Below, one piece after another: positions 19,252 to 51,155 of a stretch of 64,000 nucleotides of DNA. Source of the stretch: Escherichia coli (lineage in GTDB: Bacteria > Pseudomonadota > Gammaproteobacteria > Enterobacterales > Enterobacteriaceae); assembly GCF_003790525.1 (NCBI RefSeq), contig NZ_CP033635.1; one strand, given 5' to 3'. A program made the translations under genes and the position numbers. How positions within the stretch are numbered: position 1 is the stretch's first letter; each line of letters starts with the position of its first letter. The notes below the pieces were generated by a model. It worked only from the letters and a program-made list of their open reading frames with translations, did no database searches and was not told where the DNA came from.

Positions 19252-20631
19252 TTATTTATTGACTACTGCATCAATACTTAAACTTTCAACGGAGACACCT
19301 TTGGTTTCAATTCCAATGGTGGCGATAGCAATTGCGACAATAATTGAAACCGCCCCCAGAAGAATAAAGACTCCCGTTACGCCATAACTACTGAGCAGCA
19401 CTGCAACGGCATAAGGTGCGGCAATACCACTGATTCGCCCTACTGCATTCGCCAGACCGGAGCCACGTAATTTTGCCTCTGTCGGCCAGATCTCAGGGAC
19501 ATACACTGCCGAGGCATAGCAAACGTACATATAGACGAAAGTAATCAGGAAGAAACCAATCAGCGTTATGAGCAACATACTGGTTTGCAGTGAATAGATA
19601 TATCCGAGCACCGCAATCAGGATTAATAGCCCCACACCCATTGTTTTACGCGGAATTTTATCCATCACCAGCATGGCAATAAATATACCAAATGGCGCAC
19701 CAAACATACTCATGGTATTTAAAACAATCGAGTCTTTTAAATTAATCCCCTGGGTCATGAATATTGTTGGCAACCAGTTAATTAGTGTGTACTGCACAAC
19801 GTTCATGGCAATCAGCACACAAGAACCTAATATCACGCGTTTCAGTAATACTCCTGTCAGTAAGGCTGAATACGGCACCGCTTGTGGCGCTTTACCGTCA
19901 TCAGCAATAACCACGGGCGGCAAAGGTTTTCCCGTCTGGCGTATGACGCCTTCTTCTATACTCCGCATGACTTTCTCGGCTTCCTGATACCGTCCGCGCG
20001 ATTCCAGCCAGCGCGGGGATTCAGGAAAGTAGCGCCAGGCCAGCGCCGTAGCGATAAGCGACAATATTGCAGGGATAAGCAGTTGTACTCGCCAGTTCCA
20101 CTCTGCACTAATCAGCGGCGTGAGTCCCATCGCAATCAATGAACAGAGCGGATATGACCAGTTGCCAATAAAAGAAACCCGACTGGACCACGTTCCGCGA
20201 TTTCTACCGGGCATATATTCGGTGAAACCAGCAAACAGCGTCACCAGTAAAGCTCCCAGCCCAACGCCCATCACAAAACGGCAGGCAATAAGGAAATCCA
20301 TATTCGGTGAAAAAGCACCGACCACCATCGAGGCAATATGAATGGCCTCATAGAGGATGAACGCATTTCTGCGACCGGTTTTGTCACCGATGATGCCGCC
20401 AACCAGCGCACCGAGAAACATTCCGGCGGTCGTGATTGCTGAGAATGTGGCAGTGGTGGAATTATCTGTCCAGCCCAACGCTTTCAGCTGCGCGAGGATC
20501 AAGCCACCAACGGCATTACTCCAGCAGACAAGCAAGCCAAACGCGACGATAGCAAACATTGACGAATGCCAGCGGCAATCCGGTAAGCGATCCAGCCGAG
20601 CACCACAATGCGGTTTTGTTATCTGTTCCAT
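19252..20631 (-). CDS. ydjK: MFS transporter
   Basis: 459 aa polytopic membrane protein, paralogous to ydjE. Confidence 0.88.
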   Translation of the reverse strand: MEQITKPHCGARLDRLPDCRWHSSMFAIVAFGLLVCWSNAVGGLILAQLKALGWTDNSTTATFSAITTAGMFLGALVGGIIGDKTGRRNAFILYEAIHIASMVVGAFSPNMDFLIACRFVMGVGLGALLVTLFAGFTEYMPGRNRGTWSSRVSFIGNWSYPLCSLIAMGLTPLISAEWNWRVQLLIPAILSLIATALAWRYFPESPRWLESRGRYQEAEKVMRSIEEGVIRQTGKPLPPVVIADDGKAPQAVPYSALLTGVLLKRVILGSCVLIAMNVVQYTLINWLPTIFMTQGINLKDSIVLNTMSMFGAPFGIFIAMLVMDKIPRKTMGVGLLILIAVLGYIYSLQTSMLLITLIGFFLITFVYMYVCYASAVYVPEIWPTEAKLRGSGLANAVGRISGIAAPYAVAVLLSSYGVTGVFILLGAVSIIVAIAIATIGIETKGVSVESLSIDAVVNK

Positions 20632-47486: not shown

Positions 47487-48614
47487 TTACTGCGGATATT
47501 CCTGCAATAAATTGTGTAATGCTTCCGCCATCAGCTCACCACGCCAGCCGGAAATCAGCTCCGGCAAATTGTTCTGCGGTTTCAGTTTCCAGTGCCAGTT
47601 CAGCAGTTGGTTGATTTGCCGACGCGATGCCAGCAATTCGGCGCTGATCTTGTGCGTTTCGCTCACGTCAGTAATCAGCGACTTAATCGCTTTAAACGCT
47701 TTACGATAACCCGGCATGTCCATCAGGTTAAGCATCGGCTGCGGTAAGGCCTCTTCCGGCAATGTCTGCGCTTTTTCCACCAGCGCCAGCAGCGTTTTAC
47801 CGTGAAAGCGGATTTCGCTACCGGATAAACCCAGGCTGTCCAGTTCGCCTAAACTTCCCGGCATATAACGCGCTACAGACCACAAATGCTCTTCACGCAC
47901 GACAAAGTTCACTGCCAGATCGCGCTCCCGCGCCTTGCGCAGTCGCCAATCGGCTAACAGTTGCAGACAGGCCAGTTGGCGTGTGCGTAACTGCCAGGCA
48001 TTGGTGATATCACGCCAGGCATCTTCCGGCGCAACGACTTCCTGACGACGCATTTGCATCAGGCGGCATTCATCCAGCGCCGCAGGTAGCCAGCCGGAGG
48101 CCTCCGTTTCTACCATAAGCTTGGCGGTGATCGGTAACAAATACCAGACATCCGCCGCTGCGTATTCACACTGACGTTCGGTCAGCGGTCTGGCCAGCCA
48201 GTCGGTGCGCGATTCACTCTTGTCCAGCGTAACGCCGGAATACTCTTCCACCATGGAAGCAAAACCCCATGACATCGGGCGTCCGCAGAAGGCAGCAAGG
48301 ATTTGCGTGTCAATCAGGGGTTGTGGTAATTCGCCAAAGACATTGAGGAACACTTCCAGATCTTCACTGCCCGCATGGAGAAATTTTGTGATGGACGGAT
48401 CGCGCAGGATCGCTTTCAGTGGTGACCAGTCGGAGATCCCGAGAGGATCAATTAGCGCCAGATGCTCACCATCAAAAAGTTGAATTAGACCTAGCTGCGG
48501 GTAATAGGTGCGCGTACGAACAAATTCAGTATCCAGGGCTATCGCCGGAAAGGCACGGACGGCTTCACACAAAGAAGCCAGCGCATCGTCCGTGGTAATC
48601 ATTTGGTAATTCAA
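47487..48614 (-). CDS. rnd: ribonuclease D
   Basis: 375 aa; DEDD exonuclease motif ALDTEF; initiates at UUG (CAA on plus strand at 48612-48614). Confidence 0.9.
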   Translation of the reverse strand: MNYQMITTDDALASLCEAVRAFPAIALDTEFVRTRTYYPQLGLIQLFDGEHLALIDPLGISDWSPLKAILRDPSITKFLHAGSEDLEVFLNVFGELPQPLIDTQILAAFCGRPMSWGFASMVEEYSGVTLDKSESRTDWLARPLTERQCEYAAADVWYLLPITAKLMVETEASGWLPAALDECRLMQMRRQEVVAPEDAWRDITNAWQLRTRQLACLQLLADWRLRKARERDLAVNFVVREEHLWSVARYMPGSLGELDSLGLSGSEIRFHGKTLLALVEKAQTLPEEALPQPMLNLMDMPGYRKAFKAIKSLITDVSETHKISAELLASRRQINQLLNWHWKLKPQNNLPELISGWRGELMAEALHNLLQEYPQ

Positions 48615-48638: not shown

Positions 48639-48664
48639 AAAAAAAACGCCGGATTAACCGGCGT
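48639..48664 (-). terminator. fadD terminator hairpin plus U8, also the element upstream of the rnd UUG start
   Basis: Stem ACGCCGG / CCGGCGT with 5-nt loop followed on the minus strand by eight U, 24 nt before the rnd UUG. Confidence 0.8.
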
Positions 48665-48683
48665 CTGACGACTGACTTAACGC

Positions 48684-50369
48684 TCAGGCTTTATTGTCCA
48701 CTTTGCCGCGCGCTTCGTCACGTAATTCTCGTCGCAAAATTTTTCCGACGTTAGATTTCGGTAACTCATCACGAAACTCCACCAGCTTCGGTACTTTGTA
48801 GCCCGTGAGCTGACGGCGGCAAAAAGTCACCAGTGACTCTTCGGTAAGCGATGGATCTTTTTTCACAACGAAGATTTTCACCGCTTCACCACTAGAGCCG
48901 GAAGGTACGCCAACAGCCGCGACTTCCTGTACGCCAGGATGCTGCATGACGACATCTTCAATCTCGTTGGGATAGACGTTAAAACCGGAAACCAGAATCA
49001 TGTCTTTTTTACGATCGACAATGCGCAGGAATCCTTCTTCATCCATCACCGCGATGTCGCCGGTGTGTAACCAGCCATTTTTGATGATTTCATCGGTAGC
49101 ATCCGGACGCTGCCAGTAACCCAGCATCACCTGCGGTCCTTTGACACAAAGCTCACCTGGTTGACCAGGTGGTACTTCATTATCATCATCATCCACCAGT
49201 TTGGCTTCCGTCGACGGCACCGGCAAACCGATGCTACCACTATGATAATCAATATCATACGGGTTAACGCTCACCAGCGGCGCACACTCGGTCAGGCCAT
49301 AACCTTCCAGCAGATACTGTCCAGTCAGTTTCACCCAACGTTCTGCCACCACTTGCTGAACAGGCATCCCTCCGCCTGCGGAAAGATGCAGACTGGAGAA
49401 ATCCAGCTGCTGGAACTCTTTATTGTTCAGCAACGCATTGAACAAGGTGTTAACGCCAGTGATAGCGGTAAACGGATATTTCGCTAACTCTTTTACCAAC
49501 CCTGGAATATCGCGCGGGTTAGTGATAAGCAGGTTCTGCCCCCCCAGTTCGATAAACAGCAGGCAGTTAATGGTCAGTGCAAAAATGTGATACAGCGGCA
49601 GCGCCGTCACCACCAGCTCTTTGCCCGGATGCAACAGCGGACCATAGGTCGCGTTAACCTGTTCCAGGTTCGCCAGCATATTGCGGTGAGTCAGCATCGC
49701 GCCTTTCGCCACACCAGTGGTACCGCCGGTGTATTGCAGGAAAGCTAAATCTTCCGGCACCAGTTCGGGTTTGACGTACTGCATCCGGTAGCCGTTGTGC
49801 AGGGCGCTACGAAATGAAATGGCATCTGGCAGATGGTATTTCGGCACCAGACGCTTGATGTATTTAACAACGAAATTGACTACCGTGCCTTTTGCCGTAG
49901 ATAGCTGATCGCCCATACGGGTCAGAATTACGTGCTGAACGGCGGTTTTATCAACCACTTTTTCCAGAGTGTGGGCAAAGTTAGACACGATAACAATCGC
50001 CGATGCGCCGCTATCGTTAAGCTGATGCTCAAGTTCACGCGGGGTATACAACGGGTTAACGTTTACGACAATCATCCCGGCACGCAAAATGCCAAACAGC
50101 GCCACCGGATATTGCAATAAATTAGGCATCATCAACGCAACGCGATCGCCTTTCTTCAGTCCCAACCCTTGTTGCAAATAAGCGGCAAACGCGCGACTGC
50201 GTTCTTCCAGTTTGCGGAAGGTCATCACCTCCCCCATATTCACAAACGCGGGTTGATCGGCGTAGCGCGCGACCGACTGCTCAAACATATCTACCAGAGA
50301 TTGATAACGGTCAGGGTTGATCTCCGTCGGAACGTCCGCGGGATAACGGTTAAGCCAAACCTTCTTCAA
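48684..50369 (-). CDS. fadD: long-chain-fatty-acid--CoA ligase
   Basis: 561 aa from TTG ([10 protein letters not shown] read as MKKVW) with GAGGTG Shine-Dalgarno; AMP-binding signature [18 protein letters not shown]. Confidence 0.9.
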
Positions 50370-50441
50370 TTCTTCACCTCTAAAATGCGTGTTCGTCGTC
50401 ATCGCAACCCCAAATGATATACATGCCGTTAACATAATATT

Positions 50442-50458
50442 AACTCATCATACCAGCT
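50442..50458 (-). promoter_or_regulatory. FadR-type operator 1 of fadD
   Basis: Minus-strand AGCTGGTATGATGAGTT versus consensus AACTGGTCNGACCTGTT; 73-89 nt upstream of the fadD start. Confidence 0.55.
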
Positions 50459-50527
50459 TGATAATTACCCAACGAAAAGGTTGCGAAGCGCGTCACTATT
50501 TATTTTTATCTTTACCGTAAGAATGCA

Positions 50528-50544
50528 GAAACAGCGGACCAGCC
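50528..50544 (-). promoter_or_regulatory. FadR-type operator 2 of fadD
   Basis: Minus-strand GGCTGGTCCGCTGTTTC, 86 bp upstream of operator 1. Confidence 0.5.
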
Positions 50545-50573
50545 GCTGTTTCTTTTTCTTTAAAAACAAGCAA

Positions 50574-51155
50574 TTATTCAGTTACAACAGTTTGTACTCT
50601 CGCGGGGCCGGGATTATACCAGCCCCATCCACCGTAGCCATAGGGCCAGCCACGACCGCCATAAAACCATGGATCAATCGGCTGAGGCGGCATAATCACC
50701 TGCTGGGTTAAATGCCAACGTTTGTAACCTGTTGCCTGCATCACCATAAATTTATAGGGCGTGTTGCCGATTTTTCCGTCAACCGTACCGGTGATTGGCC
50801 CGACAACTGTCACCAGCTGCCCACGGAAATCGACCGGATCAAGAAAACCATTCACATCGGCATAAATGCGACCGCGAGAAGGTTCTCCCAGCGTCGGTCT
50901 GGCTCCGCTGTCCAGTGGTACGGTGGCAATTTCCAGGCGGGTTTTCCCTTGCTGGTTTTGTACCGCAACCACTTTGCCACCAAAGCGTGCCTCCTGACCA
51001 ACGTACAGCTGCGGCGCACTCATCACCCGAACTAAATCTTGTTGCGGCGTGGGACTGCTGCCTTTAATGGCGTCCGGCACAGTAACACAACCGCTGAGCA
51101 TTAGCGCAAACGTACCTGCCAGTATGCCTTTGATAACTTTCTTTTGAACCGCCAT
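50574..51155 (-). CDS. yeaY: Slp-family outer membrane lipoprotein
   Basis: 193 aa; lipobox LSGC. Confidence 0.85.

Follow-up and report, generated by a model that had tools for sequence, protein, structure and literature searches.

A weak FadR site upstream of Escherichia coli fadD appears to lie within the yeaY terminator

The region upstream of fadD in this DNA is very probably (about 0.9) the canonical E. coli fadD regulatory region: a promoter, FadR sites, a TTG start codon, and, at the distal FadR site, a probable terminator hairpin. The start codon, the transcription start site (TSS), the two FadR sites, and the CRP site of fadD were already established in 1992, and work from 2012 validated them again. 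The sole new point is that the weaker, distal FadR site seems to sit inside the apparent terminator of the upstream gene, yeaY. Our literature search found no prior link between the yeaY terminator and the distal FadR site.

The yeaY/fadD locus of the 64-kb window (the whole stretch of DNA that we analyzed) is 100% identical to E. coli genomes, SMS-3-5 among them, and its yeaY-fadD intergenic region is base-for-base that of K-12 MG1655. Because the sequences are identical, published data on binding, the TSS, and CRP carry over to the window. A sequence-only reading had described several motifs in this region, and every sequence it gave was found where it had placed it, on the minus strand. The gene order is common: yeaY, which is reported to belong to the sigma-E regulon, is upstream of fadD in 75 of 80 loci. 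The two genes are:

48684..50369, minus strand: fadD coding sequence, long-chain-fatty-acid--CoA ligase, 561 codons plus stop (ORF list, RefSeq boundaries, NCBIfam NF006523)
50574..51155, minus strand: yeaY, Slp-family lipoprotein, co-directional with and upstream of fadD (ORF list, RefSeq)

Between them, the promoter of fadD and the proximal FadR operator are arranged as follows:

50429, minus strand: published TSS of fadD (A), 60 nt upstream of the TTG (literature; the base there is A, and the flanking GTTAAC is conserved)
50437..50442, minus strand: putative -10 hexamer TAATAT (from its distance to the published TSS; invariant in a 19-genus Enterobacteriaceae alignment)
50428..50444, minus strand: direct repeat GTTAATATTATGTTAAC (GTTAA-N6-GTTAA), spanning the -10 and +1 (invariant in the same alignment)
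50442..50458, minus strand: proximal FadR operator AGCTGGTATGATGAGTT, -13 to -29, high-affinity, occupying the spacer of the promoter and reaching the -10 (published EMSA probe, matrix, conservation)
50482..50497, minus strand: core of the CRP-cAMP site, AGTGACGCGCTTCGCA, class I, with its center near -60.5 (covered by the published EMSA probe for CRP)

The TSS was placed experimentally, 60 bp upstream of the start (PMC3460868). Transcription of fadD begins at the A at 50429; the putative -10 (TAATAT) is usable, and the -35 region (ATTATC, 50465-50460) is poor. Because the -35 is poor, the promoter probably depends on CRP-cAMP at the class I site near -60.5. The evidence for CRP is also experimental, and the published EMSA probe matches the window exactly at 50468-50515; Feng & Cronan classed the site as class I (PMC3460868). 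Its core, AGTGA-CGCGCT-TCGCA, resembles the class I model (TGTGA-N6-TCACA-like, near -61.5), with its center at -60.5 from the published TSS, and it is near-invariant, with 2 of 16 positions varying across 19 genera. The direct repeat is a putative match to the consensus of the ArcA-P box. An ArcA site that overlaps one of the fadD FadR sites by 1 bp has been described (PMC3460868). A promoter scan had a single match, TTAATA-18-TATCAT (50443-50414), which we rejected because it does not fit the published TSS and has a -10 that lacks conservation.

The sequence-only reading had proposed two FadR operators upstream of fadD, and published probes for both sites match the window exactly. (The distal site is listed below.) FadR binding has been shown experimentally: both sites bind FadR and both are freed by oleoyl-CoA (Feng & Cronan 2012, PMC3460868), this is in line with earlier DNase I footprints (Black et al. 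1992, as cited in PMC3460868), and binding to the fadD probes was repeated in another study (PMC4259882). The spacing of 86 bp that had been proposed is right if counted from start to start, which leaves a gap of 69 bp; the published gap is 68 bp (PMC3460868).

The sequence-only reading had also claimed that both sites approximate the FadR consensus. This is true of the proximal site but not of the distal one. With the consensus that it used, AACTGGTCNGACCTGTT, the window has no matches at 3 or fewer mismatches. The proximal site has 5 mismatches to this consensus and the distal site has 7. Neither count is significant, because 45 positions in the window (on both strands) match as well as or better than the proximal site, and 965 do so for the distal site. 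Since this consensus lacks discriminating power, we used instead a matrix built from five independent validated FadR sites, and scored 127,968 positions on both strands. The proximal site ranks 2nd. The distal site ranks 112th, which is at background level. (The top match, at 20147-20163, lies inside the coding sequence of ydjK, and we treated it as chance.)

The proximal site (50458-50442) has other evidence as well. The published EMSA probe maps with 0 mismatches onto 50433-50468, and this probe was independently named the high-affinity one (PMC4259882). The FadR operator is described as a 17-bp pseudo-palindrome resembling aaCTGGTCnGACC(T/A)Gtt (PMC9329746), and the proximal site has 4 mismatches to this variant. 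Among 59 Enterobacterales loci, 51 have a site with at most 5 mismatches, whose distance upstream of the start is 80-97 nt except in one locus, where it is 128 nt, and the columns that FadR contacts (A.CTGGTA...T.AGTT) are invariant in the 19-genus Enterobacteriaceae alignment. In other words, this site both looks like a FadR operator and is conserved as one. Because it fills the spacer and touches the -10, a FadR dimer on the proximal operator would exclude RNA polymerase. Long-chain acyl-CoA, which is FadD's own product, frees FadR from the operator.

The distal site overlaps a hairpin:

50528..50544, minus strand: distal FadR site GGCTGGTCCGCTGTTTC, -99 to -115, weak in vitro (published EMSA probe, exact match)
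50527..50553, minus strand: hairpin AGAAACAGCGG-CTGGT-CCGCTGTTTCT, beginning 21 nt past the stop codon of yeaY and probably the intrinsic terminator of that gene

The distal site (50544-50528) was identified by its exact match to the published probe (0 mismatches, 50520-50552), since its resemblance to other FadR sites is at background. Its left half, CTGGTC, is the only half that matches, with the right half agreeing at 2 of 6 positions. It is not conserved either: no column of the CTGGT core is constant across the 19 genera, the only invariant columns are those of the stem, and the core is kept only in Escherichia and Pluralibacter. The footprints that Black and colleagues obtained in 1992 are said to span -13 to -29 and -99 to -115, which is consistent with the account of Feng & Cronan. 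Binding to the distal site is more than 10-fold weaker than to the other sites (PMC3460868), where the assignment of the weaker site rests on primer names, because the numbering of the sites is swapped between the primer tables of the two papers. A 2022 review finds it "surprising" that a repressor such as FadR should have a site at about -100, and remarks that in vivo tests of it are lacking.

As the sequence-only reading had noticed, the distal site is part of a hairpin: it forms the loop and the 3' arm of a perfect hairpin at 50553-50527. That reading had dismissed its first impression of a terminator as a mistake. On the contrary, covariation and the terminators at the same position in other bacteria suggest that the hairpin is most likely the yeaY terminator. 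The stem has 11 bp, of which 6 are GC pairs, and the 81-nt context folds at -24.4 kcal/mol (z = -4.25). Across 19 genera, both bases have changed in 3 of the 11 pairs, 98.1% of the cells are paired (as compared to 41-68% in slid controls), and none of 500 shuffles reached the covariation score. The loop, which contains the FadR CTGGT core, varies freely; for example, it reads CTAAG in Enterobacter sp. Bisph1, and the corresponding sites have CTCGT in Citrobacter, CTTAG in Enterobacter, and ACTAT in 'Escherichia' sp. ESNIH1. Seven of the cells are G-U wobbles on the sense strand; read from the opposite strand, they would become A-C mismatches. So the yeaY stop codon is followed by a stable, GC-rich stem-loop with compensatory changes, as expected for a terminator. 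The tail is less typical. In E. coli, the sense strand continues with GCATTCTTACGG, which is a poor U-tract, and a terminator scan makes a call on the plus strand only. Among the other Enterobacteriaceae genera in the alignment, about half carry a T-rich sense-strand tail, and more distant families have unrelated hairpins with clear T-runs at the same position. If the hairpin is the terminator, then the conservation of the distal stretch would be due to termination and not to FadR. This would be a simple explanation for the odd position of the distal site: the stretch is conserved as the stem of the yeaY terminator, and the bases that FadR contacts are in the free loop. Overall, the distal site looks like an Escherichia-specific weak site that is laid over a terminator.

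This raises the question of whether FadR binding at the distal site matters. We give slightly less than even odds to the reading that it has no regulatory role, so that the loop of the yeaY terminator merely happens to read CTGGT in Escherichia and has an incidental weak affinity for FadR. This fits with stems that covary around a loop that is free to vary, with the non-homologous terminators (a hairpin and a T-run) at the same position in Yersinia, Serratia, Pectobacterium, Proteus, and Erwinia, and with the site's background score, its weak affinity, and the absence of in vivo support from the literature. However, the site was seen by DNase I footprinting and also by EMSA with ligand-specific release, and a perfect CTGGTC in a 5-nt loop and the adjacent base is not trivially likely. 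Also, the one Term-seq dataset for K-12 that we searched, from conditions in which yeaY may not have been expressed, has no entry for yeaY and lists no RNA 3' ends on this strand between yeaY and fadD (1888020-1893787; Adams et al. 2021). It seems somewhat unlikely that the distal site is instead a real auxiliary operator that is under selection, whether to cooperate with the proximal site, to raise the local concentration of FadR, or to act as a roadblock to read-through from yeaY. FadR does bind this exact sequence in vitro and is released by oleoyl-CoA, the left half-site is perfect in Escherichia, and read-through is plausible, since the tail of the terminator is weak in E. coli. Both sites are on roughly the same face of the DNA, because 86 bp from center to center is about 8.2 helical turns, but FadR is not known to tetramerize in a way that could loop DNA. 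The weak binding, the rank in the matrix, the variable CTGGT columns beside an invariant stem, and the reviewers' surprise at the position all argue against an auxiliary operator, and despite the two sites, FadR represses fadD only 2-3 fold (PMC3460868). We predict that the distal site is dispensable for control by FadR outside of Escherichia, and possibly within Escherichia as well.

Besides the FadR sites, we examined the start of translation:

50367..50369, minus strand: TTG initiation codon of fadD (RefSeq, survey of codon 1, periodicity)
50374..50380, minus strand: Shine-Dalgarno sequence GAGGTGA, 4 nt upstream of the TTG (sequence; AGAGGTG is invariant in 19 Enterobacteriaceae genera)
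50398..50411, minus strand: conserved leader block GGGGTTGCGATGAC (offsets from -42 to -29, near-invariant across 26 Enterobacteriaceae loci)

The evidence for the TTG start, which the sequence-only reading had also proposed, comes from annotation and comparative analysis. RefSeq, the family model, and codon periodicity agree on it. In both SMS-3-5 and K-12, the RefSeq start corresponds to 50369 in the window (561 amino acids), and residues 1-560 align to positions 1-560 of the 561 in NCBIfam's equivalog model for FadD (NF006523; 1172.4 bits, versus a cutoff of 884). Strict 3-nt periodicity begins exactly at the TTG: the entropies at codon positions 1/2/3 are 0.10/0.04/0.97 downstream, as compared to 0.47/0.58/0.95 in the 11 codons upstream. 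The N-terminal peptide that had been given for FadD arises only from the TTG; the longest reading frame begins at an ATG at 50435 and encodes 583 amino acids. The proposed GAGGTG (50380-50375) extends to GAGGTGA, which is complementary to the 3' end of 16S rRNA (UCACCUC), and its spacing of 4-5 nt to the TTG is proper. Across 80 species, codon 1 of fadD is TTG in 56, GTG in 23, CTG in 1, and never ATG, and 23 of the 80 have no alternative in-frame start codon upstream. In short, fadD has the features of a UUG-initiated gene: Shine-Dalgarno spacing, no better start, and constraint from that codon onwards. We found no entry for fadD in the N-terminomics and Ribo-RET supplements that we searched, full-text searches of the literature for fadD with TTG or initiation codon gave nothing relevant, and we did not find a solved structure of E. 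coli FadD that shows the N-terminus.

Translation would begin at the UUG at 50369, served by GAGGUGA 4 nt upstream and by an unstructured 60-nt leader. The leader is less structured than shuffled controls (z = +2.16), so we ruled out a riboswitch or attenuator, and the only Rfam match in 47-52 kb is sroD. The conserved leader block contains an in-frame ATG (50402-50400), 11 codons or 33 nt before the TTG, along with a Shine-Dalgarno-like GGGG (50411-50408). An ATG at -33 nt after GRGG recurs in Erwiniaceae, Serratia, and Pectobacteriaceae, but in other lineages it is missing or interrupted by a stop.

Could FadD be translated mainly from an upstream ATG, either at 50402 (572 amino acids) or at 50435 (583 amino acids), rather than from the TTG? 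Both are in frame, and the ATG at 50402 lies within the mRNA, has the GGGG 5 nt before it, and is at exactly -33 nt in several families. Nevertheless, this seems highly improbable. The ATG at 50435 precedes the published TSS at 50429, and protein-level constraint sets in abruptly at the TTG. In Photorhabdus, Xenorhabdus, Rahnella, Erwinia endophytica, and Vibrionales, the extension has stop codons or lacks a start, while the KVWL N-terminus is kept. The family model begins at the TTG residue, and the curated annotation uses the TTG. Also, the N-terminal sequence of the purified enzyme, as determined by Black and colleagues in 1992, is reportedly Met-Lys-Lys-Val-Trp..., which would put the Met at the UUG codon. 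The conserved ATG and its Shine-Dalgarno-like motif do leave room for a longer FadD as a minor proteoform.

A broader reading, which we consider rather unlikely, is that both the non-AUG codon 1 and the upstream AUG are selected. Codon 1 has switched among UUG, GUG, and CUG several times in the 80 species, but never to AUG. Enterobacteriaceae, Erwiniaceae, Serratia, and Pectobacteriaceae have an in-frame AUG, along with a Shine-Dalgarno-like motif of its own, at exactly -33 nt. As far as we found, these features of fadD have not been described before. There might be dual initiation with a minor 572-amino-acid proteoform, or the AUG might be a standby or loading site that feeds a weak UUG, which would cap the level of FadD. 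Separately, the broader reading takes the distal FadR site to be an Escherichia-specific by-product of the terminator or else a roadblock on a leaky terminator. We view the avoidance of ATG at codon 1 throughout the order and the conserved upstream ATG as small leads on translational control, which is of interest because FadD makes FadR's own inducer.

Compared to the fadD promoter of E. coli K-12 (operators OD1 and OD2; Black et al. 1992, JBC 267:25513; Feng & Cronan 2012, PMC3460868), the window has the same intergenic bases, exact matches to the FadR and CRP probes, the same TTG start, and the same 561-amino-acid product. There is no difference in the fadD region, and the strain in the window has just one substitution in the coding sequence of yeaY. 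The gene immediately downstream, rnd (RNase D), is also UUG-initiated: the curated K-12 protein of 375 amino acids requires a TTG at 48614 in the window, while in SMS-3-5, PGAP picks an ATG that lies four codons further downstream. As a separate gene, rnd is regulated differently from fadD, and it is preceded by the U-run of the fadD/sroD terminator.

The hairpin shares several features with Rho-independent terminators in short co-directional intergenic regions: a GC-rich covarying stem, a start 21 nt past the stop codon, and an A-rich 5' flank. What sets it apart from them is a 3' T-run that is degenerate in E. coli, and a loop that also serves a transcription factor as a weak binding site. 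The other promoter of the fad regulon with two FadR sites is that of fadL, which likewise has inputs from CRP and ArcA, and its repression by FadR is modest, at 2-2.5 fold (PMC3460868). But in fadL, just 8 bp separate two sites of equal affinity that are both at the promoter, whereas in fadD, the gap is 68-69 bp, the affinities are unequal, and the distal site, at about -107, is inside an apparent terminator hairpin.

Between the end of yeaY and the fadD start, the window has the same sequence as E. coli K-12 MG1655 at every base (the one substitution lies within the yeaY coding sequence), so experiments with K-12 apply directly. Many E. coli chromosomes match the stretch at 100% identity, with yeaY and fadD annotated there, and 5,425 of 5,426 complete genomes contain it. 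The genes yoaA, tsaB, yeaY, fadD, and rnd follow one another in that order on the minus strand. The features of interest are:

50369-50367, minus strand: start codon of fadD, TTG, as read from the sequence
50380-50375, minus strand: Shine-Dalgarno sequence GAGGTG, which extends to GAGGTGA, 4 nt from the TTG
50402-50400, minus strand: in-frame ATG located 33 nt before the TTG (27 nt into the mRNA), with GGGG 5 nt ahead of the ATG
50458-50442, minus strand: proximal FadR site, AGCTGGTATGATGAGTT, at -13 to -29 from +1 at 50429
50544-50528, minus strand: distal FadR site, GGCTGGTCCGCTGTTTC, at -99 to -115 from +1 at 50429
50553-50527, minus strand: perfect hairpin, AGAAACAGCGG-CTGGT-CCGCTGTTTCT, whose loop and 3' arm are the distal FadR site

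The sequence-only reading had placed the TTG, the GAGGTG, and the two 17-mers (86 bp apart, start to start) on the minus strand, and all of these sequences and coordinates are borne out.

It had also proposed that fadD starts at the TTG at 50369, with a properly spaced GAGGTG. This is the start of fadD, given published experiments on the identical sequence and several analyses that agree. The N-terminal peptide that had been proposed is obtained only with this start. RefSeq's start for fadD in SMS-3-5 corresponds to 50369, and the K-12 product has 561 amino acids. Residues 1-560 align to positions 1-560 of the 561 in NCBIfam's equivalog for FadD (NF006523; 1172 bits, with a cutoff of 884). We compared fadD from Enterobacterales and Vibrionales at 80 species-level loci, of which 56 have TTG as codon 1, 23 have GTG, 1 has CTG, and 0 have ATG. 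In 23 of the 80, no ATG, GTG, or TTG occurs from the nearest upstream in-frame stop codon to codon 1, which leaves codon 1 as the sole possible start. Strong protein-level constraint starts at the TTG as well: across 26 loci from Enterobacteriaceae, the codons from the second onward have column entropies of 0.10/0.04/0.97 at positions 1/2/3, vs. 0.47/0.58/0.95 for the 11 codons before the TTG. Black et al. reportedly sequenced the N-terminus of purified FadD in 1992, and the peptide is said to agree with the TTG start. The longest open reading frame for fadD (583 amino acids) begins at an ATG at 50435, which is upstream of the published transcription start (PMC3460868) and hence unusable.

The Shine-Dalgarno sequence, as AGAGGTG, is invariant in an alignment of 19 genera. 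Compared with shuffled controls, the 60-nt leader has less structure (z = +2.16), which fits an open initiation region where a strong Shine-Dalgarno sequence makes up for a weak codon. Across the 80 species, codon 1 switched several times among non-ATG codons, though ATG is one substitution away; the absence of ATG suggests that a weak start codon is selected for. The next gene, rnd, has a TTG start at 48614 (minus strand) in the curated annotation of K-12 (375 amino acids), but in SMS-3-5, PGAP picks the ATG four codons downstream (48602) instead. The TTG of rnd closely follows the U-run of the fadD/sroD terminator, which corresponds to Term-seq 3' ends at K-12 1888017-1888020. The sRNA sroD (Rfam RF00370, 115 bits; 48640-48725, minus strand) overlaps the 3' end of fadD and this terminator.

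The ATG 33 nt upstream of the TTG, along with its Shine-Dalgarno-like GGGG, lies in a leader block, GGGGTTGYGATGAC (50398-50411, minus strand), that is nearly invariant in Enterobacteriaceae. Erwiniaceae, Serratia, and Pectobacteriaceae also have an ATG preceded by GRGG at exactly -33 nt. For the 11 codons from this ATG to the start, Pectobacterium, Dickeya, and Brenneria show synonymous differences only. Within the 80 loci, the -33 ATG is missing or cut off by stop codons in Photorhabdus, Xenorhabdus, Rahnella, most Yersinia, and Vibrionales. This ATG might serve as a second initiation site or as a ribosome standby site, or it might be part of a nucleic-acid element that contains ATG by chance. 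None of the initiation-site datasets that we searched were found to cover fadD.

Both FadR operators that the sequence-only reading identified are supported by published binding. Feng & Cronan 2012 (PMC3460868) describe two experimentally validated FadR sites in the fadD promoter, 68 bp apart (we count 69 bp), and their EMSA probes for FadR site 1, FadR site 2, and the CRP site match the window with zero mismatches at 50433-50468, 50520-50552, and 50468-50515. The two 17-mers are the centres of the FadR probes. On this identical sequence, FadR was shown to bind both sites in vitro and to be released from both by acyl-CoA (oleoyl-CoA), consistent with the DNase I footprints of Black et al. 1992, and repression of fadD by FadR was just 2-3 fold (PMC3460868). 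The numbering of the sites is reversed between two papers from the same group: site 1 is proximal in PMC3460868 (2012) and FadR1 is distal in PMC4259882 (2014), so statements about "site 2" are ambiguous unless compared with the primer sequences. By primer sequence, the high-affinity site is the proximal one in both papers.

The published transcription start (PMC3460868) falls on an A at 50429, and CRP-cAMP was shown, again with identical sequence, to bind a site centred at -60.5. The core of the CRP site is nearly invariant across the 19 genera. The coordinates of OD1 and OD2 from Black et al. 1992 reportedly agree with -13 to -29 and -99 to -115. The predicted -10 element is TAATAT (50442-50437) and the -35 element appears to be poor, so the promoter probably depends on CRP; FadR at -13 to -29 would occlude RNA polymerase. 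Spanning -10 and +1 and abutting the proximal FadR site is GTTAATATTATGTTAAC (GTTAA-N6-GTTAA; 50428-50444, minus strand), which is invariant in the 19 genera and which we take to resemble an ArcA-P direct-repeat box.

The claim that both sites approximate the FadR consensus held for the proximal site only. The consensus that had been used agrees with that of a 2022 review, aaCTGGTCnGACC(T/A)Gtt, and searching the window for it with up to 3 mismatches gave no matches. The proximal site has 5 mismatches and the distal site has 7; 45 and 965 positions in the window, respectively, match equally well or better. When scored with a FadR matrix from five independent validated sites (fadL1, fadL2, fadBA, fabA, and fabB), the proximal site ranks 2nd among 127,968 positions and the distal site ranks 112th, so sequence is enough to recognise the proximal operator but not the distal one. 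The window's top match to the matrix, AACTGGTCATATCCGCT (20147-20163, minus strand), lies inside the coding sequence of ydjK (an MFS transporter) and is probably due to chance.

The two sites also differ in what is conserved. The proximal operator, whose common form is AACTGGTACGCTGAGTT, occurs in 51 of the 59 loci in Enterobacterales, ranging from Escherichia to Yersinia, Serratia, Photorhabdus, Proteus, and Erwinia, at 80-97 nt upstream of the start (128 nt in one). Its invariant columns across 19 genera, A.CTGGTA...T.AGTT, are the half-site bases for FadR. The invariant columns of the distal site, G......CGCTGT, are stem bases of the hairpin, and all columns of its CTGGT core vary (CTTGT, CTCGT, CCGGT, CTAAG, ACTAT, CTTAG, and others). 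PMC3460868 described both FadR sites as "largely conserved" in Citrobacter, Klebsiella, and Enterobacter; for the distal site, we attribute this to the conservation of terminator stems. In Vibrionales, Photobacterium alginatilyticum has a strong FadR-like site (AACTGGTCCAATCAGTT, 2 mismatches) 131 nt upstream of fadD, and no FadR-like site with up to 5 mismatches was found in the 320 nt before fadD at the other loci. FadR's control of fadD may differ in this group.

The sequence-only reading took the hairpin to have been mistaken for a terminator, which is probably its sole error: comparative evidence indicates that the hairpin is most likely the terminator of yeaY. It begins 21 nt past the stop codon of yeaY, which is the co-directional upstream gene in 75 of the 80 loci. 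Across 19 genera, 98.1% of cells maintain pairing, vs. 41-68% if the partners are slid by 1-3 columns. Both sides changed in 3 of the 11 pairs, and the observed covariation score was reached in 0 of 500 shuffles. Seven cells have G-U wobbles on the sense strand, which are A-C mismatches on the other strand, and this asymmetry suggests that selection acts on the yeaY-sense RNA. A T-rich tail follows the stem in about half of the other genera, and at the equivalent position (roughly 145-210 nt before fadD), Yersinia, Serratia, Pectobacterium, Proteus, Rahnella, and Erwinia have unrelated GC-rich hairpins and then T-runs. The tail on the sense strand in E. coli (GCATTCTTACGG) is weak; a pattern scan called a terminator on the opposite strand only, where the A-rich 5' flank reads as a T-run; and the one Term-seq table that we searched has no 3' end at the hairpin.

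With conserved stems and a variable FadR core, we favor the reading that the distal site is an incidental weak FadR site on the terminator (a probability of roughly 45%). FadR does bind there in vitro, and the site might instead be an auxiliary operator or a roadblock, which we consider doubtful; the 2022 review finds it surprising that a repressor should sit at about -100, and no in vivo test was reported.

Overall, the observation is confirmed and its headline interpretation is supported, and that headline is long-established K-12 biology that was already known. Our additions to it are modest: ATG is avoided at codon 1 of fadD order-wide; an in-frame ATG is conserved upstream of the start; and the distal FadR site falls on a covarying hairpin, the probable yeaY terminator, in which the FadR core is not conserved.
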